A stretch of DNA of 64,000 nucleotides from the NCBI GenBank assembly GCA_040756135.1, contig JBFLZS010000008.1, positions 5,021 through 69,020 of the forward strand, written 5' to 3'. Below are positions 1,511-61,217 of this stretch, piece after piece; position 1 is the first letter of the stretch, and the number at the start of each line of letters is the position of its first letter. Below the pieces are notes generated by a model. The model had not been told where the DNA came from. It saw only the letters and a program-made list of their open reading frames with translations, and did no database searches. The DNA comes from Nitrospirota bacterium. GTDB lineage: Bacteria > Nitrospirota > Thermodesulfovibrionia > Thermodesulfovibrionales > SM23-35. A program made the translations under genes and the position numbers.

Positions 1511-3799
1511 GTGCAAGTCATAGATCCTGTCTGCAAGATGACTATAGAAGATAAGGAGGCGGTAGCCACGTCCACATATAAGGGAACTATCTATTATTTC
1601 TGTTCTCATCCCTGCAAAGAAGATTTTGATAAGAACCCTGAATCATTTATTAATCCCCCCATCCCCCCTTTAATAAAGGGGGGTGAGGGGGGATTAATGG
1701 GTGAGATGGCAAAGGACCCGATATGCGGCATGGTAATCCCTAAAGAGCGTTCCATAAAAAGGGTAGCGGGGGGAAGGGAATATTATTTCTGCAGCGAAAC
1801 CTGTGTAAAGACCTTCGAGGCGCCTGAAGCTGAATTGAAAGATATGAAGAGACGAGTGACTATAGCCCTTACTGGCGTTCTGGCATTAGCGGTTTTCCGT
1901 GCAGCGCTGTTTCTCGGACTTGCTGCAGGCGCAACAGTGCTCACATGGGTTCCTTTTTCGTTCCTCCCGTGGTTCAACGCTGGCGTCTGGCTTTTTATTA
2001 TCACGACACCGATTATGATTTTTGGTGGTAAAGGATTTTTTGTCGGTGCCTATCATGCGATCAGAAACCGCGTGGCCAATATGGATCTGCTAATCGCCAT
2101 GGGTACATCAACAGCCTATATCTATAGTGCCTTTGTTGTCTTTTTTCCAGGGGTATTACCGGTTGAGGAGAAGAATGTATATTTTGACGTATCAGCCATT
2201 ATCATTGCTTTTGTCCTCTTCGGTAAATATATGGAGGAAATAATCAAGAAACGGAGTTCAGCAGCAATTCGGAAACTCCTTGACCTGAAACCGCAGACTG
2301 CAAGGGTTATAAGAGACGGCGCAGAAGTCGAGATACCTGCCGAATCTGCCATGGTGGACGAAACAGTCATTGTGAGACCGGGAGAAAAAATACCGACCGA
2401 CGGGATCGTGCTTGAAGGCCATTCATCTGTGGACGAGAAGATGATCACGGGAGAGAGCGTCCCTGTCGAAAAAAAGCAGGGTGATGAGATAATCGGTGGA
2501 ACGATAAACAAGGTCGGTTCTTTCAAATTCAGGGCAACAAGGGTTGGCGCTGATACGACATTGAACCAGATAATAAAGATGGTGGAAGAAGCTCAGGCAT
2601 CGTCTTCAAATATCCAAAGGCTTGCTGATAAAGTGGCCTCTTATTTTGTACCTGCTGTTATCGGCGTAGCTTTTTTAGCAGTCATTGGGTGGATACTTAT
2701 CGGAAATCCTACGATGGCGCTTCTTTCTTTTGTTGCAGTGCTTATCATCGCCTGTCCGTGCGCCCTTGGTATTGCAACCCCTGCAGCTTTGATGGTCGGA
2801 GTAGGAAAAGGCGCTGAACTGGGGATTCTGATAAGGGGGGGAGAATATCTTGAAAAGGCAGAGAAACTTAAAGCGGTAGTATTTGATAAAACCGGTACCC
2901 TTACCAAAGGTGAACCCGAGGTTACTGAAGTAGTTAGTTTTGACGGAGGTGAAGATGATGTAGTTCTTTCTGCCTCTATAGCAGAAAAAGGTTCTGAACA
3001 TCCCCTTGCAGAAGCGATCATAAAAAGGGCGAATATGAAAGGACTCCCTGTGCCAGATGCTGATTCCTTCGAAGCCATACCGGGGCACGGAGTCAGGGTG
3101 AGTTTCAAAGGGAAGGAAATATTGATCGGCAACAGGAAATTGATGAGAGATAACGGCATACGAATAGAAGACAGAGAAAATATTGTTTCAGACATGGAGG
3201 GAAACGGGAACACAGTGATGATTGTTGCAGAAGATAACTCTCTCAAAGGGCTGATTGCCGTCGCTGATACACTGAAAGAGCATGCAGAGGATGTGGTAAA
3301 AGGGCTTAAGGCTGAGGGTGTTCAAGTTGTTATGCTCACGGGCGATAATGAGAGGACTGCTAAGGCAATAGGTGCAAAGGTAGGCATAGAAAGGATTATA
3401 GCCAATGTCCTTCCCGGTGATAAGGCAAAAGTGATAAAAGATCTTCAGGCAGAGGGTAAGGTTGTGGCAATGGTTGGAGACGGGATAAATGATTCCCCTG
3501 CGCTTGCCCAGTCTGATATCGGCATAGCTATCGGCAGCGGCTCTGATGTCGCAAAGGAGACAGGAGGAATTATTCTTGTCAAAGATGACCTGAGAGATGT
3601 GATAAAAAGCATAAGACTTTCAAGGGCAACAATGAAGAAGATAAAACAAAACCTCTTTTGGGCATTCTTTTATAATACCGCTGCAATTCCCATCGCTGCC
3701 TTTGGTTTTTTGAACCCTATTATTGCAGCAGCGGCAATGTCTATAAGCTCTTTGTCTGTTGTAACCAATTCGGCATTACTTAAAAAGGTAAAGATATAA
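1511..3799 (+). CDS. copA: Copper-translocating P1B-type ATPase with two N-terminal YHS/TRASH domains
   Basis: Motifs seen: CPC ([12 protein letters not shown]), [23 protein letters not shown] and TGES. There are two DPVCKM/DPICGM...YYFC modules in place of CxxC HMA domains. A family-A repeat is inserted between them. Confidence 0.93.
1652..1695. repeat. Family-A G6/C6 palindromic element, in-frame inside copA ([15 protein letters not shown])
   Basis: Sequence aatccccccatcccccctttaataaaggggggtgaggggggatt. It lies between the two YHS domains. Confidence 0.9.
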
Positions 3800-3811
3800 A
3801 AAGGAGTTTAT

Positions 3812-4198
3812 ATGAGTTATTACTTTAGTAAAACTTTAAATATTTCATTTAACGAAGCGATTTCAAGGGTTACGGATGAACTCAAAAAAGAAGGTTTCGG
3901 CATTCTTACTGATATAGATGTTCAGGCAACCCTGAAAAAGAAATTGAATGTGGATTTCAGAAAATATCGCATTCTCGGTGCCTGTAACCCGCCCTTTGCA
4001 TATCAGGCATTGCAAGCGGAAGATAAGATCGGCACAATGCTACCATGTAATGTGATAGTTCAGGAAATGGCAGATGGCAAAGCCGAAGTCGCAGCCATAG
4101 ATCCTGTTGCATCTATGATGGCAATTGAAAATTTCAGATTAAAAGCTGTGGCTGAACAGGTTAAAGTGAAATTGAAAGGGGTGATAGATAATTTATAA
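3812..4198 (+). CDS. DUF302 domain protein
   Basis: Contains GFGILTDIDVQATLKKKLNVDFRKYRILGACNPPFAYQAL, the typical DUF302 core. It is translationally close to the copA stop. Confidence 0.8.
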   Translation: MSYYFSKTLNISFNEAISRVTDELKKEGFGILTDIDVQATLKKKLNVDFRKYRILGACNPPFAYQALQAEDKIGTMLPCNVIVQEMADGKAEVAAIDPVASMMAIENFRLKAVAEQVKVKLKGVIDNL

Positions 4199-4244
4199 AA
4201 ATATCTTTAATAATCAATATGTTATTTTTTATTGTAGATTATTA

Positions 4245-4273
4245 ATGACAAATTTAAATATATATGCTATAAT
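4245..4273 (+). promoter_or_regulatory. Candidate sigma70-type promoter (ATGACA, 17 nt, TATAAT)
   Basis: The -35-like atgaca is at 4245-4250 and a perfect tataat at 4268-4273, separated by a 17-nt AT-rich spacer. This is a sequence match only. Confidence 0.35.
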
Positions 4274-4735: not shown

Positions 4736-4752
4736 AAAGGGATTAAGGAAGG

Positions 4753-7282: not shown

Positions 7283-7475
7283 CGTAATTCTCAGGCTTGA
7301 CCGGAGAATCCATGGTTCGACATCCTTCGACAAGCTCAGGATGACATTGTCACTCTGAGCCTGTCGAAGAGTCACCATGACAATTGTCACCCTGAGCCTG
7401 CCGAAGGGTCACCATGACAATTGTCACCCTGAGCCTGCCGAAGGGTGGATTGCCCGATCAAGTCGGGCAATGACG
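7283..7475. repeat. Family-C hairpin cluster with a 37-nt unit in tandem
   Basis: The unit tcaccatgacaattgtcaccctgagcctgccgaaggg is repeated back to back, flanked by ggcttgaccggagaatcc and ggattgcccgatcaagtcgggcaatgac hairpins. A near-identical block lies at 47190-47335. Confidence 0.85.
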
Positions 7476-12028: not shown

Positions 12029-13327
12029 TCAAAAATTTTTTAAGTAATCAATATATGAATTATAATTCCGTCTATTCTCAGTTATGCTGTCTCCTCCAAA
12101 TTTTTCGAGGAAGGCATCTGCTACAGTCAGGGCAACCATTGACTCTCCTATCACCCCTGCGGCAGGCACTGCGCAAATGTCAGAACGTTCATACGCTGCT
12201 TCCACAGGCTTTTTTGTGATGATGTCAATAGATCGCAATGGTTTCCTTTGTGTCGGTATTGGTTTCATTGCAGCCTTCAGGATTATCGGCATTCCGTTTG
12301 TCATTCCACCCTCAATCCCACCAGCAAAGTTGGTTTTCCGATAGAAGCCGCTTTTACTGAGATCGGGGATATCACCCCCCCTACTCCCCCCCTTAGCAAG
12401 GGGGGGATGGGGGGGTGAATAAAATATTTCATCCATCACCTCTAAGCCGAATCTTTTGCTCATCTCAAAACCAAGACCGATCTCAACCCCTTTCATTGCC
12501 TGAATACTCATCAATGCCTGTGCAAGACGACCATCAAGTCTTCTGTCCCACTGAATATGACTACCGAGACCCATGGGAACACCAATTACAAAAACCTCGA
12601 ATATACCTCCAAGGGAATTGCCTTCTTTAATAGCCCTGTCAATTAATTTGACCATCTTTTTTGATGTCTCTTCATCAGGGCACCTGACAGGTGATTTCTC
12701 CGCTTTTTTAAATATAGATTCGAGGATTCGAGGGTTCGAGGATTCGAAGGTTCGAGTGCTTTCACTTGACCCCTTGCCCCCTTGCCCCTTTGCCCATTGA
12801 AACTTGATTCTGCCTATTTGGATAACATAGCTTCCAATCTTGATATCAAATTCAGATAAAATTTTTTTTGCGATTGCACCCAATGCAACCCTCATAGCTG
12901 TCTCTCTTGCACTTGAGCGCTCCAGTATATTTCTTATGTCATGATGATCATATTTTATCGCACCTGCCAAATCAGCATGGCCTGGCCGAGGACGCGTAAC
13001 AAATCCCCCCATCCCCCCTTTACTAAAGGGGGGTAAGGGGGGATTATCTGCGCTCATAACATCTTGCCAGTTTTTGTAATCTTTATTTTCTATGAGAAGA
13101 GTAATCGGGGACCCGATAGTCTTTCCCCATCTCACTCCTGATAGGATTTCAGCATGGTCAGACTCTATCTTCATCCTGCCCCCTCGCCCATGGCCTACCT
13201 GCCTTCTTTTCAAATCACGGTCAATATCCTCTGCCGAGAGAGAAAGTCCTGAAGGGATCCCCTCGATGATTCCTATCAGTGCCTTCCCATGCGATTCACC
13301 TGCTGTTAAATATCTAATGGTCGCCAT
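12029..13327 (-). CDS. aroC: Chorismate synthase carrying three in-frame repeat insertions
   Basis: [25 protein letters not shown] and [13 protein letters not shown]. The likely start is the ATG at 13327; the track extension to 13351 is unsupported. Length is inflated by insertions at 12372-12418, 12717-12795 and 13002-13045. Confidence 0.92.
12372..12418. repeat. Family-A palindromic element, in-frame in aroC ([14 protein letters not shown])
   Basis: Sequence tcacccccccctactcccccccttagcaagggggggatgggggggtga. Confidence 0.9.
12717..12795. repeat. Tandem-heptamer block module, in-frame in aroC ([25 protein letters not shown])
   Basis: A (gattcgag/ggttcgag) x5 block, then a spacer, then a (cccttgc) x3 block. 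Confidence 0.85.
13002..13045. repeat. Family-A palindromic element, in-frame in aroC ([15 protein letters not shown])
   Basis: Sequence aatccccccatcccccctttactaaaggggggtaaggggggatt, immediately upstream of the RPGHAD motif codons. Confidence 0.9.
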
Positions 13328-19338: not shown

Positions 19339-19887
19339 TCATTGAGATGGGTTGTGGACCACATTTGCCAGAAAGTGAAATATAATTCCGGGAAGTATAT
19401 TGTTTGTCTTCATATAAAGCCATCCCATCATAATGGATGGAAAAAAGCTGAGAAGTGATATCCAGTCATCGGCAAAAATAGCCTTTGGCAAGTGTGCAAT
19501 TGAAAACAGCAGGCTCACCAGTAAAACAGCCTTGAAGTTTCTCCCTATTGAATCCTGAAGAAATCCTCTGAAAAAGAACTCCTCTGGCAGAGAGATGATT
19601 AAAAGCTGGAAGATTATACCCCTCACCCATCCCTCTCCCTCAAGGTGAGGGGGGGAGGGCGAAAAGACAATATAGTAGGGCAAAAGTATAACAATAGATA
19701 CGATAAATCCTAAAAAAAAGTCATTTATCGAAAACCATAGTTTTACATTGTGGCCTACGATTATTGGAAACATCAGCATTATAATTGGTAACGAAACGTA
19801 AAAAATATTGTTTGCGGGCTTTATTGAATACAAGAGAAAAGATAAAATGAGAATAACAAAATAACCAGATATAGTCTTTATGTTCAT
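19339..19887 (-). CDS. CPBP-family (CAAX-protease-like) intramembrane glutamic endopeptidase
   Basis: A polytopic membrane protein with all three family motifs: EExxxR (LPEEFFFRGF), FxxxH (FSIAHL) and HxxxN (FHFLAN). A repeat-derived segment SPSPPHLEGEGWVRG precedes motif 1. Confidence 0.85.
   Translation of the reverse strand: MNIKTISGYFVILILSFLLYSIKPANNIFYVSLPIIMLMFPIIVGHNVKLWFSINDFFLGFIVSIVILLPYYIVFSPSPPHLEGEGWVRGIIFQLLIISLPEEFFFRGFLQDSIGRNFKAVLLVSLLFSIAHLPKAIFADDWISLLSFFPSIMMGWLYMKTNNILPGIIFHFLANVVHNPSQ
19620..19662. repeat. Variant G/C-run palindromic element, in-frame in the CPBP gene
   Basis: Sequence ccctcacccatccctctccctcaaggtgagggggggagggcg. Confidence 0.6.
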
Positions 19888-20036: not shown

Positions 20037-20936
20037 TCACAGACTCCCCTTTAAAGGAATCACATAATATCCCGGGGAAATTTTATACCTTTCAAGCTCA
20101 CCGCGAAATAAAGGGTTTTCAATAAAAGATATTCCGGGCATTAATTCCAAATTGAGGTTCATAACAGCATCTTTTACAGCGCCCTTCAACCTCGCATGGA
20201 TATCCTTTCCTTCAAGGGCGATAGAAACAACATTTATCATATTTCCTTTTATGTCTACAGTACCTCTTATGCTATTAAAAAAATTCAGAGGAACATTAAC
20301 CCCTGACAGAATCGCTGGCTCAAGTCTTGAATCTTCAGTAACAAACTCAACATGTCCTGTATCATCTAACATATTAAATCTTCCTGAAACGGTTCCGGTA
20401 CCCTGTATACCGATGAGTTTAAATAAAGGTATCCCATTTATATTAGCTTTGTTAATATCAAGCTCTATCTGCATCTTATTCTTTGTAAGATTCGCGCGCC
20501 CCGAAAAGTTCCCTCCTCCTATACCTCCGTCAAAGGATATATTCAACCATAACATTATAAAACTTAGCGGGCTTATATGGCCATAGATATTATTTAAAGA
20601 GACAAGTTCTTCTCCCGAGCTTTTTAGTGTTAACCTGTCAACAGCCAAATTATAAAATAAGCCTTTTTTAAGTCCTTTAACTTCCAACCCGAGCTTATCA
20701 CTATTAATAGAATCCTCTATGATGGATTGTATTGAGGCATTAGGAAATACTATCCATATCCCATAGAAAAGAACCGGAATGGCAGCAAGAGCGATAAGGA
20801 TCTTTTTGCTCGAAAATCCCTCTTCCCTTCCTGACAAATCCCCCCATCCCCCCTTTGCTAAAGGGGGGCGAGGGGGGATTACTAAAGGGCAGTTAGAGGG
20901 ATTACTTCTATTATTTTTTGTATTGCAACGGGGCAT
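20037..20936 (-). CDS. gspN: Type II secretion system protein GspN (assigned by position; start uncertain)
   Basis: It is the last gene of the gspC-N order and has a single N-terminal TM helix (ILIALAAIPVLFYGIWIVF). The ORF-track N-terminus runs through a family-A repeat, so the true start is probably downstream of 20837. Confidence 0.55.
   Translation of the reverse strand: MPRCNTKNNRSNPSNCPLVIPPRPPLAKGGWGDLSGREEGFSSKKILIALAAIPVLFYGIWIVFPNASIQSIIEDSINSDKLGLEVKGLKKGLFYNLAVDRLTLKSSGEELVSLNNIYGHISPLSFIMLWLNISFDGGIGGGNFSGRANLTKNKMQIELDINKANINGIPLFKLIGIQGTGTVSGRFNMLDDTGHVEFVTEDSRLEPAILSGVNVPLNFFNSIRGTVDIKGNMINVVSIALEGKDIHARLKGAVKDAVMNLNLELMPGISFIENPLFRGELERYKISPGYYVIPLKGSL
20837..20880. repeat. 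Family-A palindromic element in the gspN 5' region (IPPRPPLAKGGWGDL)
   Basis: Sequence aatccccccatcccccctttgctaaaggggggcgaggggggatt. Confidence 0.9.
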
Positions 20937-23664: not shown

Positions 23665-24402
23665 TTAAATCATCTTCCCCACCCTCGGTCTTGACACATC
23701 AAAAAGGTCAACCTTTCTTCCTTTTATTATCATGGACAGACAGATCCTGATCTCACCGGGCATGCCCTTGGTTATGTCAGTATCCCACGTCTTCACCCAT
23801 CTGTCGTTGTATTTCGCTTCAATAGTAAACTCTTCAATATCCTCAATTATATCAACCCCTTCGGTTTCATCTGATAATCCCCCCAGCCCCCCTTTACTAA
23901 AGGGGGGTGAGGGGGGATTATCTTTATTAGCATAAGGGGATTCCACCTTCTTAAAGAGATTTAATTTCCCATCTTTTTCTTCTATGTAGTATGAAATCAT
24001 GGAAAGGCCGGGGCGCAAAGTTGAAAAGGTTGTAAAGGTAAGCTTCGTTGCCTGCTTACCGTAGATATCCCTGTCTTCAATCTTTAAAAATGTATTACTA
24101 TCATCCTTATAGAAAGAAGCCGAATCCAGTTCACGCCTTAAGATGTCAATCGCCTTTCTATATTCCTGAAGTTTCAACAGAGATTCGTCCATGCCTTCAA
24201 TCGCCCTATGGCTTAAGAAAAATGTGCTGTAGATTGCAGCAAGGACTATAGAAAGTATTGCAACAGCGATGAGTATCTCAATAAGGGTGAAACCACCCTG
24301 CCTCCCTTTACTAATAATCCCTCTCAATACCCCTTTATCAAATCCCCCCTTGCCCCCCTTTTCTAAAGGGGGGATGGGGGGATTACTTAAAAACAAACTC
24401 AT
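23665..24402 (-). CDS. gspJ: Type II secretion system minor pseudopilin GspJ (start uncertain; possible TTG at 24327)
   Basis: Prepilin-type site RQGG|FTLIEILIAVAILSIVLAAIYS. Family-A repeats lie in the leader or 5' region and internally (NPPSPPFSKGGLGGL). Confidence 0.8.
   Translation of the reverse strand: MSLFLSNPPIPPLEKGGKGGFDKGVLRGIISKGRQGGFTLIEILIAVAILSIVLAAIYSTFFLSHRAIEGMDESLLKLQEYRKAIDILRRELDSASFYKDDSNTFLKIEDRDIYGKQATKLTFTTFSTLRPGLSMISYYIEEKDGKLNLFKKVESPYANKDNPPSPPFSKGGLGGLSDETEGVDIIEDIEEFTIEAKYNDRWVKTWDTDITKGMPGEIRICLSMIIKGRKVDLFDVSRPRVGKMI
23876..23919. repeat. Family-A palindromic element, in-frame inside gspJ
   Basis: Sequence aatccccccagcccccctttactaaaggggggtgaggggggatt. Confidence 0.9.
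24341..24383. repeat. Family-A palindromic element at the gspI 3' end / gspJ leader
   Basis: Sequence aatccccccttgccccccttttctaaaggggggatggggggatt. Confidence 0.9.
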
Positions 24403-24868
24403 TAAGTTTTACCTCTTCTTTACCGGCCCTGACAGTAACAATAATCTCTGATATGCCAACATATGGTGACTCCTTAACAAAGGTCTCATAAGTATACCCT
24501 TCATAGGGTGTGTCAAATACCCCTTTTTCATTATCACGGCTTTTTTCTGCATCTGCAATCTTATTCTTTGCAAGAAGGGTTGCAATTGTGAGGGTCTCAT
24601 GCCTTTCGATGATACCTAAATGATAGTTCAGGGTATATATAAGGGTTACAAGGAGACCTCCAACAATGGCAAGGGCAAGGAGGACCTCAAGAAGGGTAAA
24701 GCCTGCTTTATAAGAATTATTAAGGGTCTTAAATTTGAATTGAAATTGTTTAAAAAATCTCCCCTTGCCCCTCTTTTCCAAAGAGGGGAATCCCTCCCTT
24801 TGGCAAAGGGAGGTTAGGAGGGATTTTACAATTAATGCCGTTATGATTATGAGACTATTAATAAACAT
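24383..24868 (-). CDS. gspI: Type II secretion system minor pseudopilin GspI
   Basis: Prepilin-type site YKAG|FTLLEVLLALAIVGGLLVTLIY. The long leader contains family-B repeat codons (SLCQREGFPSLEKRGKGRF). Confidence 0.8.
   Translation of the reverse strand: MFINSLIIITALIVKSLLTSLCQREGFPSLEKRGKGRFFKQFQFKFKTLNNSYKAGFTLLEVLLALAIVGGLLVTLIYTLNYHLGIIERHETLTIATLLAKNKIADAEKSRDNEKGVFDTPYEGYTYETFVKESPYVGISEIIVTVRAGKEEVKLNEFVFK
24754..24827. repeat. Family-B double-hairpin element inside the gspI leader-coding region
   Basis: aaaatctccccttgcccctcttttccaaagaggggaatccctccctttggcaaagggaggttaggagggatttt. Confidence 0.85.
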
Positions 24869-25945: not shown

Positions 25946-26185
25946 TAGAGTCTGTCCATAAAGTCGTATTTTGTCATTGTCCGGCTTGACCGGACAATCC
26001 AGAACATATTGAAAACACTGGATTCCCCGATCAAGTCGGGGAATGACTAATTGTATAAGTCATAAAGTCAGTTTTATTGTCATTCCTGCGGAGGCAGGAA
26101 TCCAGAACCTTTTGAAAATACTGGATTCCGGCTTAAGGACTGCCGGAATGACAGATAGTAAACATCAGTTTATACATAGACACTA
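25946..26185. repeat. MITE-like nested-hairpin element inside the gsp operon (gspF-gspG spacer)
   Basis: Imperfect terminal inverted repeats tagagtctgtccataaagt ... cagtttatacatagacacta enclose four family-C hairpins. The element ends 1 nt from the gspF stop. Confidence 0.8.
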
Positions 26186-27362: not shown

Positions 27363-27386
27363 ATATTATAAATACCTAAAATATAA

Positions 27387-27430
27387 ATCCCCCCTCACCC
27401 CCCTTTACTAAAGGGGGGAGTGGGGGGATT
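27387..27430. repeat. Family-A palindromic element, gspE-gspF intergenic
   Basis: Sequence aatcccccctcacccccctttactaaaggggggagtggggggatt. Confidence 0.9.
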
Positions 27431-29059: not shown

Positions 29060-29104
29060 AATCCCCCCATGCCCCCCTTTAGTAAAGGGGGGTTAGAGGG
29101 GATT
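29060..29104. repeat. Family-A palindromic element, gspD-gspE intergenic
   Basis: Sequence aatccccccatgcccccctttagtaaaggggggttagaggggatt. Confidence 0.9.
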
Positions 29105-29110
29105 TGTCCT

Positions 29111-31405
29111 TCATCTAATCTTCATTATATAATTCGGCTCTGCGTATTCTACTTCATTATATTTGCTGAATATCTTAACTGCCTCTTTAACGTCCTGCCC
29201 CTTCTTCAGTTTTATATGATAAAGCCCCCTCGGTTTCAATATGGATATAATAGATGCACCTTCAGTTGACAGTATTTCAGATATCCTCTCCTCAGAGGTC
29301 TCTTCCTTGAATTTTATAAGCAACTCCCCTTGTTTATATCTTTCCTCGGATTTAGCGAACTCTAACCCTTTATTATTGGTCAACCTCGAAAGTTGTTCGG
29401 CCTCTTTAATTATATGCGGGGTCAGAAACACAAGCAGGTTAGTCTTCTTCTTTTCCATTGTCTTGTTTTTGAACAGCCATCCAAGGATAGGAATATCCCC
29501 AAGCAATGGAACCTTGGCTATACTCTCTTCTTCCCTCTCCTCCATAAGGCCACCTATCACTACTGTCTGGTTATCCTTAACAACCACGGATGTCTTTGTC
29601 GAGCGTTTTGTTGTAGTCGGACCTATTGTCGTTATAATCTCTGTTGATTCCTGCTTTACGGCTGATATCTCCTGATAAATATCGAGCTTAATATAATCGC
29701 CCTCAGTAATCTGCGGCGTAATGCGCAATGTTATACCCACATCCTTCCTCTCGACAGAGGTCAATACAGTGGTGGTTGTTGAAAGGTCCCCCTGTCTTTG
29801 CGTTATGAAGGGTACATTCTCGCCGACAAGAATCTCAGCCTCCTTATTGTCAGATGTGAGGATCTGTGGTGTTGAAAGAACATTCACCGCACCATTGAAC
29901 TCGTTAAGGCTGAAAAGGACAGCAAATCCAGGAATTGTAAGGGTTGATGTTGTAATTGTTCCATCTGAATCAACCGTTGTTAAAGGCACATCTAAGAAGT
30001 TCCCCATGCCTCCGGCTGTTAGCCCTGTAAGTCCATAGATAACATTCTGTAGCGATGTGGCATCCATAGTTCCAAAACCACCTATTACTACAGGTTCTCC
30101 ATCTTTCTCCGCAGTAACCCTCCATTTTGTGCCAAGTTCTCTCAGTTTATCAATCGATGCCTCGACAATCATCGCCTCTACATAAACCTGCTTTCTTCTT
30201 TTATCGAGTTGCTTAATAACCTGTATAAGATTCTGATAATCAGATGGTGACGCAACTATTACAAGTGAATTAGTTGCCTTATCAGGTGTTATAGTTATAC
30301 CACCGGCTGCCTCAAATGGTGTAACCGGAGCCCCTGTTGCACCAGAGGCGACCTGTCTAACAGGTTGTACACCTTTCAGTATTCCTTCAAGGACCTTTGA
30401 TAACTCGGTTGCATCTGCATTCTCAAGGAAATATACATTTATCCTTCCCTGTGCCTCGGGTGATGGTACGTCAAGGAGGGCAATAAGTCCCTTAAGCGAT
30501 TCCCTCATGCCTCTATCTCCAAAGAGGACAACGGCATTCAGCCTTGAGTCAGCTACTGCCTTTGCCTCCTCCGCTGCTGGCTGTCCAGGCACAGCCTTTG
30601 TCTTTCTACTTATACCATCATTGAGTATTTTTGTAATAGCATCAGCGCTTGAGTATTTAAGAAGAACAATCTCGGGTTCTTCCCTTACTGATGGCTGGTC
30701 AATAGCCTCAACGATGGAGAGGATCTTCTCTATATTCAGGCCTGAATCAATCACTAAAAGTAAGTTGCCAGGGCCAAAGGCTGAAATATGCCCATCCTTT
30801 GACACGACAGGTTGGAGAAACTTGAGCGCATCATCTGAAGATATATATCTTAAAGAAATCAACCTTGCCATATAACTTTCGTTAACAGGCAATCTTTCTG
30901 TAGCAATCTGCATTCCCCTCTGCTTTGCCTCGGAGGCAGGAATAATCTTGTATGCATCAACACCTGAAGGAATAACCGTGAAGCCCTTAAGCTCAAGCAC
31001 CGCTGTGAAGAGATCAAAGGCATCATCAACAGATAATTTTGAAGGAGCTATTATTGTTATCTTACCTTTCACCCTCTCATCAAAGATAAAATTTTTCCCT
31101 GTAATCTCACTTATAAATTTTGTTATAGTTGAAAGCTCGACATCTACAAAGTTAAATGTAACCTTCTTATCCTTGACTAAATCCTTTTTACTCTCTGTTA
31201 CATCTGTCTCAGCTATGGAATCGGTTACAACAATGATTGACATATAACAGCCAAAGAATATTAGGCATGCAACAAGTGAAAGGGCAGTTATTGATTTTCT
31301 AAATATTTTCACCTTAAAATCCCCCCATCCCCCCTTTTCTAAAGGGGGGCGAGGGGGGATTACTTCTATTGTTTTTTGTGTCTCTATAGGACAAATTTGT
31401 TTCAT
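29111..31405 (-). CDS. gspD: Type II secretion system secretin GspD with a C-terminal subtilase-prodomain-like module (alternative GTG start at 31312)
   Basis: N0 domain (VTFNFVDVELSTITKFISEITGKNFIFD), N1-N3 domains and a secretin core (VVIGGLMEE...VPLLGDIPILGWLFKN...LLVFLTPHII). The last 75 aa align to the S8 prodomains. Confidence 0.93.
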   Translation of the reverse strand: MKQICPIETQKTIEVIPPRPPLEKGGWGDFKVKIFRKSITALSLVACLIFFGCYMSIIVVTDSIAETDVTESKKDLVKDKKVTFNFVDVELSTITKFISEITGKNFIFDERVKGKITIIAPSKLSVDDAFDLFTAVLELKGFTVIPSGVDAYKIIPASEAKQRGMQIATERLPVNESYMARLISLRYISSDDALKFLQPVVSKDGHISAFGPGNLLLVIDSGLNIEKILSIVEAIDQPSVREEPEIVLLKYSSADAITKILNDGISRKTKAVPGQPAAEEAKAVADSRLNAVVLFGDRGMRESLKGLIALLDVPSPEAQGRINVYFLENADATELSKVLEGILKGVQPVRQVASGATGAPVTPFEAAGGITITPDKATNSLVIVASPSDYQNLIQVIKQLDKRRKQVYVEAMIVEASIDKLRELGTKWRVTAEKDGEPVVIGGFGTMDATSLQNVIYGLTGLTAGGMGNFLDVPLTTVDSDGTITTSTLTIPGFAVLFSLNEFNGAVNVLSTPQILTSDNKEAEILVGENVPFITQRQGDLSTTTTVLTSVERKDVGITLRITPQITEGDYIKLDIYQEISAVKQESTEIITTIGPTTTKRSTKTSVVVKDNQTVVIGGLMEEREEESIAKVPLLGDIPILGWLFKNKTMEKKKTNLLVFLTPHIIKEAEQLSRLTNNKGLEFAKSEERYKQGELLIKFKEETSEERISEILSTEGASIISILKPRGLYHIKLKKGQDVKEAVKIFSKYNEVEYAEPNYIMKIR
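29114..29338 (-). other. Subtilase-prodomain-like module fused to the GspD C-terminus
   Basis: GspD YKQGELLIKFKEETSEERISEILSTEGASIISILKPRGLYHIKLKKGQDVKEAVKIFSKYNEVEYAEPNYIMKIR, against S8 YVPGEVLVKFKTGTSASRV...HRIKLPHKMSVEDAVKYYKAEPDVEYAEPNYIVKK, and YKEGELLVKFKSG...ERVKLPQGLSVKDAIMQYMSDPNVEYAEPNYIKR. Confidence 0.8.
31318..31361. repeat. Family-A palindromic element in the gspD 5' region (IPPRPPLEKGGWGDF)
   Basis: Sequence aatccccccatccccccttttctaaaggggggcgaggggggatt. Confidence 0.9.
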
Positions 31406-32368: not shown

Positions 32369-32413
32369 AATCCCCCTTAATCCCCCTTTACTAAAGGGGG
32401 ATTAAGGGGGATT
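32369..32413. repeat. Family-A variant (C5/G5) palindromic element, S8-gspC intergenic
   Basis: Sequence aatcccccttaatccccctttactaaagggggattaagggggatt. Confidence 0.9.
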
Positions 32414-41685: not shown

Positions 41686-44061
41686 TTATTTCTCCACAAT
41701 CCTCGGTGTAATAAATATCATAAGCTCGCTTACGTCCTCAGTAATGGATTTATTCTTGAACAACCATCCAAGAACAGGGATATTCATTAATCCCGGTACA
41801 CCAGAAAATGAATCTCTTTCTGTTCTCTTATAGACCCCGCCGATAACTAAGGTCTCTCCATTTTTTACAAGAACCTTTGTATTTCCTTCTATCTTAGATG
41901 TCCTTGGGACATCAGAGCCGGCAATCTTAACTGTTCCTAAAACATCTTCTTTTTTTACAACAACTGACATACTTATGGAACCAGCAGGCGTTATGTGTGG
42001 TGTTACCTCTGTACTAATTGCGACATCCTTAAACTCAGTTGATATTTGTCCTGACTGCGGGTCTATTTTAGGAAAAGGTTCACTTGTACCTTGCATTATT
42101 GTGGCCTTTTCATTGTCAGTTGTAACAATCTTAGGATTAGAGATTATCTTACTTTTGCCAACCTTCTCAAGGGCAGAAATCTGTAGGTCAAGACCCATAG
42201 TCTTTGCAGGGTTCAGGATTCCGAAAGTAAATCCTGAGCCAGAGCCTGCACCTGCACCTCCTGGAAAGTCAACAATATAGTTTTCCCCAGTGAATGTCCC
42301 TGTACTAAGCCCTGAATACCCACCTATGGAGGATAAGGTGTTGGGACTATTAAAGAAGCCTCCCCACTGAATCCCTAAATCTCTGGCATCTGAAGTATTA
42401 ACCTCAACAATCCTTGCCTCTATCAATACCTGCGGGGTTGGCTTGTCGAGGGTCGCAAGGAGATTTTCTACCTCGGGGAAAACCGATGCTGCATCCTTGA
42501 TGAGCATGGTACTTGTTCTTTCATCAACACTTAAACTTCCCCTTGGTGTAAGTATCTTTGCGTTCTTCACCGCTGTTTCTATGTCTTTGACCTTTGCGTA
42601 GCTTATAGGGAATATTCTGGTTGCTAATGGCTCTGCCTTTATTTCCGCTTCCATTGCCTTAGCCGCCTCTTCACTTTCCTTCGCAAAGACTGTGTGTGGA
42701 GCAATCCTTACGATGTTTCCTTCGATGGACTTACCCAGGCTAAAGGTTTTAAGTATGGTATCAAGCGCCTGATTCCATGGCACATCTTTAAACTTCATGG
42801 TACATCTGCCTTTTACATCAGGATGCAAAAACAGGTTACATCCGCTTATATCAGCAAATAACCTGAATATCGGCACTATGTCTTGATCCTGAAAATCAAA
42901 GTTGATGTTCTCCTTGCCCTCTAAATATGCCTTACACCTGTCTTCTACGAGCATTTCAGGCTTCTTTGCCTCTTCAGTTGCTGTTTTTACAACAGGCATC
43001 TGGGTTGTCGGCAGTGCCAACGCTATTACAATAGAGTTCCCGACTGCTGCAACATCAAAATTTGTCTTTTCTTCAAGGTCGAGGACAATTCTGATCTTGT
43101 CATCATGTTTTCCTGAACGTATTCCTTTCACGGGCGAGACCACAACAGATGGAAGCGGGGTATTCAAGACCACATCAGGGATATCTATCACAATGCGGTT
43201 CTCTAAGGGGAAGACATCGGGCATCATGAAGCCATTGCCCGTAATCAAGACCTTAACACCCCCTACAGACTCTTCAAATGAGATGCTGGATATCTCTGTA
43301 GCCTCAGGAAGTTGTTCCTGCTCGGTTTCAGAAGGTTCAGGTATTTCTACCTCTGGTATCTCTTCAGGTGGTTCCTCTTTTGTCGGTAATAACTCTTCTT
43401 TTGGTATCTCTTCAGGTAGTTCTTCCTTTGTTGGTAGTAACTCTTCTTTTAATACCTCTTTAAGGGGTTCTTCCTTTATCTTCACTATCAGTACATTGTT
43501 TTTATATTCCTGTTCAATTATAGAAGGTGTCTGAAGCAGCATCTCGAGTCTTGCTATAAAAGATGGCGCCTTAATCTGGGAAGGCACTATCTCAGTTATA
43601 CCAGCCTTGTCAGAGACGATCCTGCTGTTGAAAGCACCGACGTCAACATCAGGAAGGTCAACGACAATTTTATAAGGGTCGCCCGGTCTGTATATAGTGT
43701 AGATAAACGGTTTATTGACTGCTATACTTACTGTATAATCCTGAATATCTATGCCGGTTATTGTAGGCACTTCCTTGGGCTCTAAAGACTCTTTAACTTC
43801 GGTTTCTACAGTTGCACAACCCCCAAAAGCAATAAGCATAAAGCAAAGAGCAAAGAGCAATAATCCCCCCATCCCCCCTTTTAAATCCCCCTTAGCCCCC
43901 CTTTTCCAAAGGGGGGTGTGGGGGGATTCAGGGGGATTTTGGTAACGAAGCTCGTTTCGTTTAATAAGTTTATTGGGTTTTTTGAGTTCATTGAGTTTCT
44001 TGAGTTTTATAACCCAAGAAACTATGTAAACCCAAAAAACTGTGTAAACATTCTGTTTCAT
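41686..44061 (-). CDS. pilQ: Type IV pilus secretin PilQ with AMIN domains (alternative start ATG at 43872)
   Basis: Two AMIN-like domains, N0/N1 domains and a secretin core (VIGGVYKRTERDSFSGVPGLMNIPVLGWLFKN...MIFITPRIV). It follows pilMNOP. The ORF-track N-terminus runs through repeats. Confidence 0.9.
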   Translation of the reverse strand: MKQNVYTVFWVYIVSWVIKLKKLNELKKPNKLIKRNELRYQNPPESPHTPLWKRGAKGDLKGGMGGLLLFALCFMLIAFGGCATVETEVKESLEPKEVPTITGIDIQDYTVSIAVNKPFIYTIYRPGDPYKIVVDLPDVDVGAFNSRIVSDKAGITEIVPSQIKAPSFIARLEMLLQTPSIIEQEYKNNVLIVKIKEEPLKEVLKEELLPTKEELPEEIPKEELLPTKEEPPEEIPEVEIPEPSETEQEQLPEATEISSISFEESVGGVKVLITGNGFMMPDVFPLENRIVIDIPDVVLNTPLPSVVVSPVKGIRSGKHDDKIRIVLDLEEKTNFDVAAVGNSIVIALALPTTQMPVVKTATEEAKKPEMLVEDRCKAYLEGKENINFDFQDQDIVPIFRLFADISGCNLFLHPDVKGRCTMKFKDVPWNQALDTILKTFSLGKSIEGNIVRIAPHTVFAKESEEAAKAMEAEIKAEPLATRIFPISYAKVKDIETAVKNAKILTPRGSLSVDERTSTMLIKDAASVFPEVENLLATLDKPTPQVLIEARIVEVNTSDARDLGIQWGGFFNSPNTLSSIGGYSGLSTGTFTGENYIVDFPGGAGAGSGSGFTFGILNPAKTMGLDLQISALEKVGKSKIISNPKIVTTDNEKATIMQGTSEPFPKIDPQSGQISTEFKDVAISTEVTPHITPAGSISMSVVVKKEDVLGTVKIAGSDVPRTSKIEGNTKVLVKNGETLVIGGVYKRTERDSFSGVPGLMNIPVLGWLFKNKSITEDVSELMIFITPRIVEK
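43355..43450. repeat. 48-nt tandem duplication in the pilQ inter-AMIN linker
   Basis: The two units are 43355-43402 and 43403-43450. They encode KEELLPTKEELPEEIP / KEELLPTKEEPPEEIP. Confidence 0.85.
43862..43935. repeat. Composite/nested family-A elements in the pilQ 5' region
   Basis: aatccccccatccccccttttaaatcccccttagccccccttttccaaaggggggtgtggggggattcagggggatttt. Confidence 0.85.
43971..44050. repeat. Tandem-heptamer block module at the pilP-pilQ junction
   Basis: A (tgagttY) x3 block and (gtaaacM) units, flanked by ttgggtttttt / aaacccaaaaaa. Confidence 0.65.
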
Positions 44062-44597: not shown

Positions 44598-44676
44598 CTG
44601 ACAGGCGAGACGCCTGTCCTACTAATATCGAGGTTATTACCACCAACAGTGGTAGGACAGCCGTCTCGGCTGTCCC
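44598..44676. repeat. Family-D hairpin pair (gacaggcgagacgcctgtcctac type), pilO-pilP intergenic
   Basis: ctgacaggcgagacgcctgtcctac ... gtaggacagccgtctcggctgtccc. A single related hairpin lies at 19966-19989. Confidence 0.7.
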
Positions 44677-47405: not shown

Positions 47406-48280
47406 AAGAGTCTTTCTATTTTTATTATGTTATTTTCTAATCTGCCTATTCCGAATAATTTATTTTCAGGGTTCTTAAGCCTGATATATTGCACCTCACC
47501 TCCTTTTAATTCCCCCTTTAGTAAAGCGGGATTCAGAGGGGTCACTGGCATGCCATTTCTTGCCTTACGATAAGAATCTTCATCGAGTACTATTTCATTC
47601 ATATGTGAGAGTACCGAATCTATTGAATGGCAGGTAGTTTTTTTATTTTTTAGTTCCTCTATCGAGATTGAATCCTCAATCCTGAAGCTGCCTATTCTGG
47701 TTCGCTCTAATAAAACCATATGGGCACCTACACCGAGAACCTTACCAACATCATCACAAAGAGTTCTGATATAAGTTCCTTTTGAACATGATACTTTTAG
47801 ATCAAGATGGGGTAGATTGAAGCCCACAAGGTCTATCCTGTGAATAATTACTGTCCTTTCAGGTATTTTCATCTTTATACCCCTTCTTGCGAGTTTATAG
47901 AGGGGATTTCCACCTATCTTAATTGCAGAGTACATAGGTGGTGTCTGTTTTATCTGTCCTGTAAAATTTTTTATGACCCTATTGATATCTACCTCTTTTA
48001 ATGAAGAGCAATCTCTCTTTTCTAATATCCTGCCGGTTATATCGTATGTATCTGTTCTTTCGCCAAGTTTTAATCTTACACTGTACTCCTTATCCAAATC
48101 TGATAAAAACCCTGTTATCTTCGTTGCCTCATTTAAACAGACAAGTAGTACACCGGTTGCAATGGGATCGAGTGTTCCAGCATGCCCGGCCTTTCTAACA
48201 GCAAATATCTTTTTAACCTTTATTACAGCCTGCTGTGAAGATATATCTTTGGGTTTATTGAGGTTTATGACAATGTTCAT
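47390..48280 (-). CDS. truB: tRNA pseudouridine(55) synthase TruB
   Basis: NLNKPKDISSQQAV...KAGHAGTLDPIATGVLLVCL plus a PUA-like C-terminus. The likely start is the ATG at 48280; the track TTG at 48286 is less likely. A degenerate family-A insertion lies at 47491-47545. Confidence 0.9.
   Translation of the reverse strand: MNIVINLNKPKDISSQQAVIKVKKIFAVRKAGHAGTLDPIATGVLLVCLNEATKITGFLSDLDKEYSVRLKLGERTDTYDITGRILEKRDCSSLKEVDINRVIKNFTGQIKQTPPMYSAIKIGGNPLYKLARRGIKMKIPERTVIIHRIDLVGFNLPHLDLKVSCSKGTYIRTLCDDVGKVLGVGAHMVLLERTRIGSFRIEDSISIEELKNKKTTCHSIDSVLSHMNEIVLDEDSYRKARNGMPVTPLNPALLKGELKGGEVQYIRLKNPENKLFGIGRLENNIIKIERLFNVYP
47491..47545. repeat. Degenerate family-A-like element, in-frame in truB (LNPALLKGELKGGEV)
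   Basis: cacctcacctccttttaattccccctttagtaaagcgggattcagaggggtcac. The arms are eroded. Confidence 0.5.
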
Positions 48281-49885: not shown

Positions 49886-50005
49886 ACTCCAAATCACCAA
49901 TAACCAAATTCCAAGTTCCAAACTTGTCTGGTTTATTGTAATTTGGTTATTGGTGATTGAATCATTGATTATTATTTGGTTATTGTAATTTGGTTATTGG
50001 TTATT
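49886..50005. repeat. Tandem-heptamer hairpin module (ccaataacc / ggttattgg type), infB-rbfA intergenic
   Basis: ctccaaatcaccaataaccaaattccaagttccaa ... aatttggttattggtgattg ... aatttggttattggttatt. It fills the whole spacer. Confidence 0.8.
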
Positions 50006-53204: not shown

Positions 53205-53249
53205 AATCCCCCTTAATCCCCCTTTGCTAAAGGGGGACTGAGGGGGATT
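53205..53249. repeat. Family-A variant palindromic element between convergent DUF721 and clpX genes (possible bidirectional terminator)
   Basis: Sequence aatcccccttaatccccctttgctaaagggggactgagggggatt. Confidence 0.85.
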
Positions 53250-58747: not shown

Positions 58748-58868
58748 TTCAGCCTTTCAATGTTTTTGTATATAACATTTTACATCTTATTTGTCTGTCA
58801 TGAGAGTTTGACATTTAATCATACATGGTAATTATAATTTAAAAAGCAATTATCATGCCAGTCACACT

Positions 58869-61217
58869 CTACTTATCCAGTACCTCCCTCACCTTTCTTA
58901 AAAGCTCTTTTGGTGAAAGAGGTTTTGAGATGAAATCAAATTCTTCATCAAGAAAGCCCTTTCTCCTGACAATATCAACTGCGTAACCGCTTACAAAAAG
59001 GGCTTTAATATCATGTCTTATTTTCTTTATTTCATCATAAGCCTCTTTACCACTCTTCTTTGGCATTACTACATCAAGGATTAAAAGCTGGATTTTATCT
59101 TTATCTTCTATAAATTTTTTTATCGCATCCTCTCCATCCACAGCCTCTAAAACCTTATATCCAAATTTCTGAAGTATATCTTTTGTGAGTTTTCTCACCT
59201 CCAGATCATCCTCTACTAACAATATTGTCTCTGTGCCACCGGTTGGGATGGTAACAGTCGAAGGTTTTATTTCTTCAACGTATGATTTAATCACCGGCAG
59301 ATATATCTTGAATGTTGTGCCTTTCCCTGATTCACTATTTACATTGATATAGCCGTTATGCTGTTTAATTATCCCGTATACCATCGAAAGCCCGAGCCCT
59401 GTGCCTCTCCCCACTTCTTTTGTTGTAAAAAATGGTTCAAATATCTTTTTGACTATCTTTTTATCCATGCCAGTACCTGTATCTGTTACGGATATAAGCG
59501 CATATCTACCGGGCTTTTTATATTTAAATGCACTTAAAAACTCTTCATCTAATTCTACAAGTTCAGTGCTTATAGTCAAACAACCTCCGTCAGGCATCGC
59601 ATCCCTTGCATTTGTAGCAAGATTCACCAAGACCTGCTCTATCTGACCTTGATCTGCCATAACAACTACATCTTCAATCCCCCCTTGCCCCCCTTTATCA
59701 AAGGGGGGTGTGGGGGGATTAAGTATGACTTTAAGTTCAACGTCTTCACCAATAACCCTTAATAAAAGTTTCTCTACCTTTTTTATAATCTCATTGAGAC
59801 TCACTGGCATTGGTTTGATTATCTGTTCTCTGCTAAATGCAAGCAGACTCTGTATCAGGTTAGCTGCCCTCTCTGATGAGACAAGTATCATTTCTACATT
59901 ATGCTTTAAAGGGTCATCTTCAACCATCTCCTCTTGCAGGAGTTTTCCATAGCCTATAATTGTTGTGAGCATATTGTTAAATTCATGAGCAATGCCACCA
60001 GTCAGTGTTCCGACAGCCTCCATCTTCTGGGCTTGAAGGAGTTGCGATTCGAGTCTCCTCTGATCAGTCACGTCTCGCATCATCCCCCGATATGACACGA
60101 TGTTGCCTTTCTCATCGTGGACAGCCGTAGTTGTCGCAAGCACAATTAGTCTCTTACCGTCTTTCTTCTTCAAAACCAACTCATAATCTTTTACGAATCC
60201 ATGCTGCTTTAAAGCTTGTTGATACTTTTCTCTGTCTTGAGGATTAAAATAAAGATCCTGCGCAATATCAATTCTCAGAAGTTCATCTTTTGAAGAATAT
60301 CCGAGCAATTCAACCCCGGAAGGATTGATATCCAGAAACCTTCCTTCAGGTGTACTAATAAAGACTGCGTCTTTTGATTCTTCGAACAGGGTACGATATT
60401 TTTCTTCGGACATTCGCAACTCTTTCTCTGCCTTTCTATGTTCTGTGATATCACGGAAGACCAAGACTACACCGATAATATTGCCATCTCTGTCCTTGAT
60501 AGGGGCGCCGCTGTCTGCTATGATCCTTTCCGTGCCATCCCTGGCAATAAGTATGGTATGGTTGGCAAGCCCGACAATCAAACCAGTCGTGATGACCCTT
60601 GTAACAGGGTCTTCAGGAATCTTACGGGTTTTTTCATTAATGATATGGAAGATCTCATAATGAGGTTTGCCTGCAGCCTCTTGTTGAGTCCAGCCTGTGA
60701 GCTCTTCTGCTACCTTATTGATTAAGAGTATTTTCCCTTCCCTGTCGGTGGCAATAACACCATCGCCTATAGAGCGGAGGGTCACGAGGAGGCGTTCTTT
60801 TTCGACTGCAAGCTCCATGGTCTTTTTTTCAATTTCCTTTTTTAATTCTAATTGATTCAAACAATGTGCAATAGTGTTCAGTATTTCTTTTGATTCAAAA
60901 GGCTTTTCAATAAAGTCATAGACACCGAGACGAAATGTAGCTATGGCTTTCTCTTTATCAGCATAGCCGGTAATTATGATTACTTCTGTATCTTTGTATT
61001 CCTCTTTGATCTTTTGCAATACCTCGATCCCATCCATACCGGGCATCACGATATCGAGAATAACAAGGTCAAAAGTTTGAGAAGACATGATCTGAAGGCA
61101 TTCCGGACCGCTCGAAGCAGTTGCTACCTCATAGTCATAGTCCTGTAATAAACCGCTCAGACTCTTTCTAATCTTTTCTTCATCATCAACTACCAGAATC
61201 CTATATGGGGATGACAC
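58869..61217 (-). CDS. Hybrid sensor histidine kinase (REC, two PAS, HisKA, HATPase, REC) with an in-frame family-A insertion
   Basis: N-terminal REC (ILVVDDEE...DLVILDIVMPGMDG), two PAS domains, H-box GGIAHEFNN, N/G boxes (NLATNARDAM, DTGTGM, GTGLGLS) and a C-terminal REC (ILLVEDD...LLILDVVMPKKSG). Confidence 0.9.
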   Translation of the reverse strand: MSSPYRILVVDDEEKIRKSLSGLLQDYDYEVATASSGPECLQIMSSQTFDLVILDIVMPGMDGIEVLQKIKEEYKDTEVIIITGYADKEKAIATFRLGVYDFIEKPFESKEILNTIAHCLNQLELKKEIEKKTMELAVEKERLLVTLRSIGDGVIATDREGKILLINKVAEELTGWTQQEAAGKPHYEIFHIINEKTRKIPEDPVTRVITTGLIVGLANHTILIARDGTERIIADSGAPIKDRDGNIIGVVLVFRDITEHRKAEKELRMSEEKYRTLFEESKDAVFISTPEGRFLDINPSGVELLGYSSKDELLRIDIAQDLYFNPQDREKYQQALKQHGFVKDYELVLKKKDGKRLIVLATTTAVHDEKGNIVSYRGMMRDVTDQRRLESQLLQAQKMEAVGTLTGGIAHEFNNMLTTIIGYGKLLQEEMVEDDPLKHNVEMILVSSERAANLIQSLLAFSREQIIKPMPVSLNEIIKKVEKLLLRVIGEDVELKVILNPPTPPFDKGGQGGIEDVVVMADQGQIEQVLVNLATNARDAMPDGGCLTISTELVELDEEFLSAFKYKKPGRYALISVTDTGTGMDKKIVKKIFEPFFTTKEVGRGTGLGLSMVYGIIKQHNGYINVNSESGKGTTFKIYLPVIKSYVEEIKPSTVTIPTGGTETILLVEDDLEVRKLTKDILQKFGYKVLEAVDGEDAIKKFIEDKDKIQLLILDVVMPKKSGKEAYDEIKKIRHDIKALFVSGYAVDIVRRKGFLDEEFDFISKPLSPKELLRKVREVLDK
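59676..59720. repeat. Family-A palindromic element, in-frame in the kinase catalytic region (NPPTPPFDKGGQGGI)
   Basis: Sequence aatccccccttgcccccctttatcaaaggggggtgtggggggatt. Confidence 0.9.

Follow-up and report, generated by a model that had tools for sequence, protein, structure and literature searches.

Several families of short repeats invite comparison with the one described here. MITEs (miniature transposable elements with inverted repeats) and similar repeats include, among others, the cyanobacterial Nezha elements and small dispersed repeats as well as the Correia and ERIC sequences, and the mobile GC clusters of yeast mitochondria are short GC-rich palindromes in an AT-richer genome that are also found in translated genes. 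Repetitive extragenic palindromic (REP) sequences, REPINs, and the RAYT (Y1/HUH) transposases are reportedly the subject of work by Nunvar in 2010 and by Bertels and Rainey in 2011. The MITE-type comparators are also treated in PMC3184786 and PMC10969869, and the former, a review by Delihas, forms together with general background the basis of our comparison with REP/REPIN sequences and bacterial MITEs. In Coxiella, QMITE1 and QMITE2 are bacterial MITEs with in-frame insertions (PMC5896051). The Rickettsia palindromic elements (RPEs), as summarized from Ogata et al. 2000 in PMC10969869, are palindromes of ~100–150 bp that are confined to Rickettsia. Here, we analyzed a stretch of 64,000 nt (hereafter the window) on contig JBFLZS010000008.1 of a Nitrospirota metagenome-assembled genome (MAG; Thermodesulfovibrionia-like, GC content ~41%), which harbors 13 full copies of a palindromic hairpin with runs of six C and six G, the G6/C6 element. 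The hairpin, which is dispensable, was acquired at numerous unrelated sites and in either orientation, with a tendency to build up in spacers and in a small, recurring set of protein loops. With moderate confidence, we regard it as a selfish, non-autonomous, REP- or MITE-like repeat that has a DUF559 (Vsr-like) nuclease as its probable trans-acting partner.

A search of the window for the pattern C6-N2-4-C6-N6-14-G6 gave 21 strand-hits, compared with none in 100 dinucleotide-preserving shuffles, and a fuzzy search with the full consensus recovered the 13 full copies (Table 1). This bears out the initial annotation, made from the sequence of the window, which had reported at least 13 clear copies at positions that agree with ours, some of them in intergenic spacers. 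The element is 43–45 nt (mostly 44–45 nt) long and has the architecture W-AAT-C6-N2-3-C6-TTTNNNAAA-G6-N2-3-G6-ATT-W, where the left arm is made up of two tandem ATCCCCCC units of 8–9 nt and the right arm is its complement, and the inverted repeat spans the whole element, as the terminal inverted repeats of MITEs do. As single-stranded DNA, it is predicted to fold into two 9-bp helices with a 2 × 3 or 3 × 3 internal loop of non-complementary bases between them and an apical loop of 3 nt, at folding energies of −19 to −24 kcal/mol and z-scores of −4 to −7 for each copy. The mismatch in the internal loop is conserved, with AT opposite YGA. Two copies in the window (32369 and 53205) represent a C5 subtype with TTAA spacers, which forms a perfect or near-perfect palindrome, has 0–1 open frames and is found between genes only. 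A search of the window against Rfam 15 at the gathering score gave no matches, and searches of the literature by DNA, peptide, and topic retrieved no description of the G6/C6 element.

Outside the window, an exact scan that demanded 39 specified bases found the element in at least 117 contigs. Among the matches listed, to which the copy counts of 126–130 given below also refer, the record titles assign 55 to the Nitrospirota, 35 to the Desulfobacterota, 9 to the Nitrospinota, 8 to the Pseudomonadota, 6 to the Methylomirabilota, 2 to the Chloroflexota (Dehalococcoidia), 1 to an anammox planctomycete, and 1 to an Asgard bin. A near-identical element is thus present in at least seven bacterial phyla. 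The hosts are uncultured lineages of groundwater, sediment, or lakes; the carriers in the Nitrospirota include both Thermodesulfovibrionia with 40% GC and Nitrospira with 65% GC, and those in the Pseudomonadota are Methylococcales, Ca. Marithrix, and Hyphomicrobiales. Across loci with a GC fraction of 0.30–0.69, loop and spacers track the composition of the host while the arms stay fixed. Regardless of which enzyme is involved, it is unusual for a repeat without coding function to keep 39 invariant bases over 30–69% GC and at least seven phyla. The element was also found in four viral contigs, two of which (IMG/VR L123:847-891 and L125:4870-4914) have it in-frame in genes whose products, judged by eye, appear to be a phage portal protein in one and a Mu-I-like protease in the other, and phages are plausible carriers between hosts.

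Empty sites in relatives identify the repeat as an insertion and not as a conserved protein motif. Every gsp site that is occupied in the window is empty in four orthologous gsp clusters (L119–L122; 85–90% nucleotide identity), which contain only 0–1 copies of the G6/C6 element each. Within gspJ, the window has a clean gain of 54 nt (18 codons) over three of these relatives (L119, L120, and L122). The gspE and gspF genes, which overlap by 20 nt in the relatives, have gained 88 nt in the window, equal to the element plus ~20 nt on each side, and the gspC–gspD spacer has gained ~96 nt; in the relatives, the spacers of the gspE–gspF and gspC–gspD region hold other, unrelated hairpin repeats. In aroC, the copy at insertion site 1 is missing from the closest relative (L118; 88% protein identity), which does share the copy at site 2. 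The peptide is accordingly not carried by the relatives at the gspJ site or at aroC site 1, where its presence would have spoken for a protein motif. In an alignment to the solved Aquifex structure 1Q1L, which we used to map the AroC loops, both inserts, located within the chorismate synthase domain, coincide with gaps. An AlphaFold model of AroC with 40 close homologues was also tried for loop mapping and proved unusable (mean predicted local distance difference test score of 42.5).

Across 120 AroC homologues, three hot loops are either empty or, depending on the lineage, occupied by the element, by its composites, or by one of at least four further peptides of repeat origin, and this reuse of three loops by several repeat families amounts to a natural experiment in the tolerance of loop insertions. 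The third repeat-derived insert of aroC in the window (12711-12796, − strand) consists of GGGGCAAGG-like units in tandem and, after them, CTCGAAYCC units, likewise in tandem; other lineages have the G6/C6 element or different repeats in this loop. Between the window and L118, nucleotide identity of aroC is 60% over ~130 nt at site 1 and 78% in the region of the third insert, compared with 94–97% in the other non-repeat segments; a recombined patch, and not a local insertion, is the probable source of the site-1 copy.

The initial annotation had described an element of 44–45 nt; the insertions are not plain additions of this length, as the observed gains are 54, 88, and 96 nt. It had also raised the matter of target-site duplications, and none was detectable over 127 copies at any offset for lengths of 2–5 nt (no direct repeat occurred in more than 18 of the 127). 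The flanks are random across these copies, except for A/T at position −1 and T/A at +1. Composite or multi-arm copies are common. Simple nesting was considered as their general origin and rejected: most consist of extra left arms or of a right end followed by a left end.

Genes retain the element only if the whole gained stretch is divisible by three in length and free of stop codons, and it then reads as a Pro/Gly-rich coil with the translation PPxPP[F/L]xKGGxGG or phase variants thereof. The 44-nt core can be in-frame only with extra bases added, as shown by one clean case, the 54 nt in gspJ. In the window, 5 of the 13 copies are securely internal and in-frame (copA, both aroC sites, gspJ at 23876, and a histidine kinase gene). 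Nine copies within open reading frames (ORFs) had been claimed initially, of which these five stand as coding; those at gspD, at the 5′ end of gspJ, and at pilQ are more likely to belong to 5′ leaders or spacers than to the genes proper, and the one at gspN is of ambiguous coding status. After this correction, spacers and 5′ leaders, which make up ~13% of the window (the maximal-ORF coding fraction being 87%), account for 8 of the 13 copies, so the element is enriched outside genes. Automatic ORF prediction runs genes on through the element because several of its frames are open: between 0 and 4 of the six frames are open in the window copies and mostly 3–4 in exact copies across species (n = 130). 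Of the latter, 61 (47%) are ORF-internal, that is, the ORF around them continues without a stop for 60 codons or more to either side, and they use all three phases (43:14:4). This overturns the earlier view of a single open frame with the other two stopped, while the proposal that either orientation can be accommodated in genes holds, as the two are equally frequent there (22:22). Copies of 44 nt and of 45 nt are equally frequent inside and outside ORFs. An enrichment in the gsp genes, likewise proposed before, is nominally present (P = 0.006, post hoc), with 7 of the 13 copies falling within 19.5% of the window, and specific to this lineage, given the 0–1 copies in its relatives.

The search for an enzyme that could move the hairpin relied on a screen of ORFs in the vicinity of copies whose flanks are duplicated. 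Between such copies, L023, L024, and L100 showed no transposase; the lead to DUF559 came from L057 (Desulfomonilaceae) and was a chance find. This locus encodes a DUF559 (Vsr-like) protein of 121 amino acids, with a three-run hairpin that ends 17 nt before the ATG and a full element that overlaps the stop codon, and a PF04480 match is listed for all 120 homologues of the protein. Hairpins of the family lie at most 60 nt from both gene ends in each of the seven distinct DUF559 loci with DNA. A single arrangement recurs in six of them, with C6-loop-G6-NNN-G6ATT placed 8–25 nt before the ATG and AATC6-NN-C6-loop-G6 at the stop codon, and the flanking hairpins are thereby inverted ends of ~33 nt in three-run versions. 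C-terminal tails that translate the left arm (e.g., EIPPGPPLSKGG, KSPQPPFIKGG, and EIPLDPPLRKGEDF) occur in 67 of the 120 closest DUF559 homologues, compared with none of 120 AroC and none of 120 GspF proteins. The whole DUF559 family comprises 26,674 representative clusters at E ≤ 0.001, and among 150 diverse representatives examined, translations of hairpin arms were found in 24 of 48 N-terminal extensions and 22–32 of 74 C-terminal ones (0–1 of 120 in the controls). Moreover, DUF559 cores with C6/G6-type tails are 48% alike among themselves compared with 41% to those with CCCTCTCCC-type tails (a difference reached in 0 of 500 permutations).

Complete hairpin-DUF559-hairpin units are present in-frame inside the HsdS-like proteins P0434, P0484, and P0490 and inside the methylase-like protein P0380 of 1214 amino acids, which has two of them. 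These units in restriction-modification proteins look like intein-less, read-through insertions of a nuclease gene. Pairs without a gene also exist, in which a three-run right end is followed after 4–12 nt by a three-run left end (L041:7893-7975, L024:3575-3645, L057:6331-6407, and L134:2905-2975; in degenerate form also at 24749-24825 in the window), and their order is the one expected of abutted ends of a DUF559 unit, as in a circle or tandem junction. Downstream of DUF559 genes, L129:3421-3600 and L133:3418-3560 hold arrays of decayed, CCTTTATTAAAGGGGG-like hairpins, which suggests repeated local accumulation or slippage. Most of the close DUF559 homologues are located on contigs of 0.5–2 kb, consistent with multi-copy units that break short-read assemblies. 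In the literature found on DUF559, the one link to repeats is a table from an independent survey (PMC9881135) in which DUF559 proteins are enriched among genes flanked by inverted repeats (odds ratio of 14). The Vsr/DUF559 clade also includes a homing endonuclease, I-Bth0305I (PMC3424549; PMC9403480).

In the mechanism that we favor, the probable trans-acting partner would be this DUF559 (Vsr-like) PD-(D/E)XK endonuclease of ~121 amino acids. By analogy with REP sequences and RAYTs, the hairpin-DUF559-hairpin unit would be autonomous, and the solo hairpins would descend from it and greatly outnumber it; the solo four-run element may have the two gene ends superimposed on a single inner hairpin. 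Movement could proceed through a nick of the extruded hairpin at its mismatched internal loop or through recombination at hairpins; speculatively, the AT/YGA internal loop might offer a mismatch of the T:G type, as known for substrates of Vsr, in the extruded hairpin. A bolder proposal, which we advance only tentatively, is that hairpin-DUF559-hairpin units constitute an unrecognized class of autonomous mobile elements, that the hairpins and the sister families CCCTCTCCC/GGGAGAGGG are their non-autonomous forms, and that they have spread over at least seven phyla, partly phage-borne, and routinely remodel proteins in-frame by inserting either just the hairpin or the nuclease gene as a whole; the enzyme would be the Vsr-like PD-(D/E)XK nuclease instead of a transposase from a known family. 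If the link to DUF559 is true, it would provide a function for one of the largest uncharacterized families of small nucleases (>26,000 clusters at 50% identity) and would reveal a system like that of REP and RAYT built on a different enzyme fold. It would also explain annotation noise such as Pro/Gly-rich tails and false N-terminal extensions as well as fragmented groundwater and sediment assemblies.

Among the described systems, the RPEs and the REP/RAYT pairs are functionally the closest, and the resemblance to RPEs noted in the initial annotation can be kept as an analogy, namely in-frame read-through in housekeeping proteins. Both repeats are palindromic, lack coding capacity of their own, occur in-frame in unrelated housekeeping genes as well as between genes, and are read through as an extra peptide that is thought to be tolerated in surface loops. 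By length, sequence, and hosts, it is set apart from the RPE family: the G6/C6 element has 43–45 nt instead of ~100–150 bp and at least seven phyla of hosts instead of Rickettsia only, and shows no evident sequence relationship. RPEs are also not known to have a nuclease partner, whereas the hairpins described here are found at both ends of a DUF559 gene. With REP/REPIN sequences and RAYTs, the element has in common that it is a short, GC-rich, imperfect palindrome present in hundreds of copies without target-site duplication, that the repeat stands on both sides of a single small gene but is far more often found alone, and that gene clade and repeat sequence appear to co-vary. REPs are, in contrast, overwhelmingly extragenic, whereas 47% of the exact copies are ORF-internal and 5 of the 13 window copies coding; REPs are also specific to a species or genus and have a GTAG-type head, whereas the head is AAT here and the distribution crosses phyla. 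The flanked gene encodes a Vsr-like PD-(D/E)XK nuclease and not a Y1 transposase, and in the loci covered DUF559 was the only gene found consistently flanked by the repeats, although no systematic whole-genome search for Y1/HUH genes was made.

Bacterial MITEs resemble the G6/C6 element as non-autonomous inverted repeats with occasional in-frame ORF fusions and nested or composite copies. They differ in that they normally have a target-site duplication, derive from an insertion sequence (IS) by internal deletion, and keep the terminal repeats in the same order, and the element is not a classical MITE because it lacks the duplication and has a reversed, junction-like order of arms. As to a parent element, the DUF559 gene has related ends, is no known transposase, and shows this reversed arm order. 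The GC clusters of yeast mitochondria are organellar, belong to other sequence families, and have no nuclease gene of the DUF559 type. I-Bth0305I is alike in that the candidate partner matches PF04480 and the Vsr/DUF559 clade already holds this mobile homing endonuclease, but it is found in a group I intron or intein context with one long target (PMC3424549; PMC9403480), whereas the genes described here are free-standing, bracketed by hairpins, and accompanied by hundreds of solo copies. The element is best placed with in-frame palindromic repeats, as one with an unusually broad, near-invariant distribution and a testable candidate enzyme.

A number of observations weigh against a selfish hairpin that is mobilized by DUF559. 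No DUF559 gene is present in the 64-kb window, and one is nearby in only 2 of ~126 element loci. The order of arms around the gene is the reverse of that in a MITE formed by internal deletion, with the gene-flanking ends appearing in opposite, junction-like order in the solo element; L137 has flanks of one polarity at 57 nt from the gene, and L101 has a different hairpin upstream. The co-variation between DUF559 clade and hairpin type is confounded by host phylogeny, and we know of no enzyme activity for the DUF559 subfamily of the L057 type, which could be a passenger that lands beside hairpins. Neither a target-site duplication nor a fixed insert length is seen, and the non-element sequence within the 54-, 88-, and 96-nt gains is not predicted by a precise transposition mechanism. 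The copy at aroC site 1 is embedded in a divergent patch, so that some of the spread may be due to homologous recombination of alleles and not to insertion. Finally, the hosts are all MAGs, and labels such as that of the Asgard bin may be binning errors. The rarity of DUF559 near the element, the arm order, and the two atypical loci would fit a scenario in which another enzyme, or recombination and hitch-hiking, moves the hairpin and DUF559 is an independent, selfish, homing-type gene that settles beside hairpins, much as REP sequences serve as insertion targets for IS elements; that many unrelated hairpin families gather in the intergenic spacers of these genomes also favors it. We judge this scenario unlikely, though worth serious attention: the specific layout conserved in six of the seven DUF559 loci from different lineages (G6ATT and AATC6 proximal to the gene, the ATG 8–25 nt away, and the stop codon overlapped), the hairpin-derived tails across diverse DUF559 clades, the whole units with their hairpins inside other genes, and the co-variation of nuclease clade with hairpin type all argue against it.

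The preference for spacers and 5′ leaders (8 of the 13 window copies) could alternatively reflect selection by the host for a cis-regulatory hairpin, such as a terminator or attenuator, an mRNA stabilizer, a Shine-Dalgarno-like G-run or start codon donor, or a protein-binding site, with genic copies being incidental. Consistent with this are the strength of the hairpin, the conservation of its arms alongside drifting loop and spacers, the G-run located 8 nt before the aligned start of gspD in place of the AGAGGA of the relatives, and the ATG in a spacer of the pilQ copy that could be a start codon. Such a role is nevertheless improbable, as the sites are not conserved among close relatives, which argues against any required regulatory function, roughly every second copy is ORF-internal, with either orientation represented, the window has no Rfam match, and the gspE–gspF insertion even breaks the apparent translational coupling of overlapping genes. 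A consistent U-tract is also lacking, and only 2 of 7 copies in the 19–33 kb region are terminator-like, both of them antisense; on account of these antisense copies and a 3′ flank that is random beyond +1, a family of intrinsic (Rho-independent) terminators was rejected. The recurrence of the peptide in many proteins might still suggest that PPxPPLxKGGxGG is a conserved protein motif, and G6/C6 runs are error-prone on some sequencing platforms, which would point to assembly or sequencing artefacts. We give this almost no credence and consider it ruled out by the comparisons with orthologues, from which the segment is missing. Its DNA moreover occurs in spacers that encode nothing, in either orientation, and in three reading phases, orthologous copies are common to independent assemblies (aroC site 2 in the window and L118; L028 and L050, with identical flanks), and the carrier assemblies stem from many projects and include very long contigs and a closed genome of 6.8 Mb. 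The reading as a selfish repeat with a probable DUF559 partner is the one that we prefer for the copies listed in Table 1.

Table 1. Copies of the G6/C6 element and related hairpins in the window (coordinates refer to the 64,000-nt window)
Coordinates	Feature	Start of full copy	Location	Remarks
1652..1695	Full 44-nt copy	1652	In-frame in copA (+ strand gene)	Linker between two N-terminal YHS domains, both in one frame
12374..12417	Variant copy with C7/G7 runs	12374	In-frame in aroC (− strand), insertion site 2	Common to closest relative L118; gap vs 1Q1L
13002..13045	Full 44-nt copy	13002	In-frame in aroC, insertion site 1	Gap vs 1Q1L; not in the 88%-identical relative; divergent patch of ~130 nt
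19620..19665	Second hairpin family (CCCTCACCC...GGTGAGGGGGGGAGGG)		In-frame in CPBP/Rce1-like gene	Common to L122 orthologue
20837..20880	Full 44-nt copy	20837	Between gspM and conserved gspN start	Degenerate extra arm at 20881-20905
23876..23919	Full 44-nt copy	23876	In-frame, internal to gspJ	Protein and DNA alignments with L119, L120, and L122
24341..24384	Full 44-nt copy	24341	gspI–gspJ junction	gspI stop TAA overlaps the AAT end of the element
24749..24825	Degenerate double copy, C-to-T decay		Upstream of true gspI start	N_methyl motif of gspI starts at ORF residue 52
27386..27430	Full 45-nt copy	27386	gspE–gspF spacer	
29060..29104	45-nt copy with one mismatch	29060	gspD–gspE spacer	Unrelated repeats there in relatives
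31318..31361	Full 44-nt copy	31318	gspC–gspD spacer, 5′ untranslated region of gspD	
32369..32413	C5 subtype with TTAA spacers, perfect 22-bp palindrome	32369	Intergenic	No open frame
43862..43945	Composite copy of several arms (4 C-runs, 3 G-runs)	43884	5′ end of pilQ	Contains a full copy at 43884-43928
47491..47536	Possible eroded copy		C-terminal part of truB (− strand)	AATCCCGC-TTTACTAAA-GGGGGAATT
53205..53249	C5 subtype copy	53205	Intergenic	One open frame
59676..59720	Full 45-nt copy	59676	In-frame in hybrid histidine kinase gene (NPPTPPFDKGGQGGI)	Between HisKA and HATPase_c

The coding status of several copies depends on the choice of start codon. At gspN, an in-frame TTG directly follows the 20837 copy, and the ATG before it overlaps the stop codon of gspM; in L122, gspM and gspN abut or overlap without an insert. 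A TTG downstream of the 24341 copy would give GspJ a normal prepilin leader of 12 residues, and this copy, at a junction where the relatives have other hairpin families or nothing, is probably part of the gspJ 5′ leader and not coding. The ATG start of gspD in the relatives aligns exactly with a GTG downstream of the 31318 copy in the window, and it is before this GTG that the G-run ends. The pilQ composite is upstream of, and overlaps, a likely lipoprotein signal peptide, which may start at the ATG in one of its spacers, and its composite peptide is also present in AroC of other lineages. The degenerate double copy upstream of gspI reads, on the − strand, AATCCCTCC-TAA-CCTCCC-TTTGCCAAA-GGGAGGGATT, followed by CCCCTC-TTTGGAAAA-GAGGGG-CAA-GGGGAGATTTT.

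The repeat in the CPBP/Rce1-like gene had been taken for an eroded copy of the element and was rejected as a member; it belongs to a different hairpin family (CCCTCxCCC...GGGxGAGGG), which recurs elsewhere. Further families of hairpins or inverted repeats occupy spacers of the window at 570-621, 7325-7444, 26022-26044, 43968-44049, 44600-44674, and 49892-49958. They include ATTCCCCGACTTGATCGGGGAAT, with three copies of which two are adjacent (565-621), GACAGGCGAGACGCCTGTCCTAC, an array centered on TGTCACCCTGAGCC, and also AATCACCAATAACCAAATT, which resembles a repeat in the gspD–gspE spacer of L120. The GspD secretin of the gsp cluster (29111-31405 in the window; L119:2601-4505) ends in a C-terminal domain similar to the Fervidolysin N-prodomain (PF22148), a domain that also heads the neighboring S8 peptidase of the cluster, which makes for an odd pairing of a secretin with its likely substrate.

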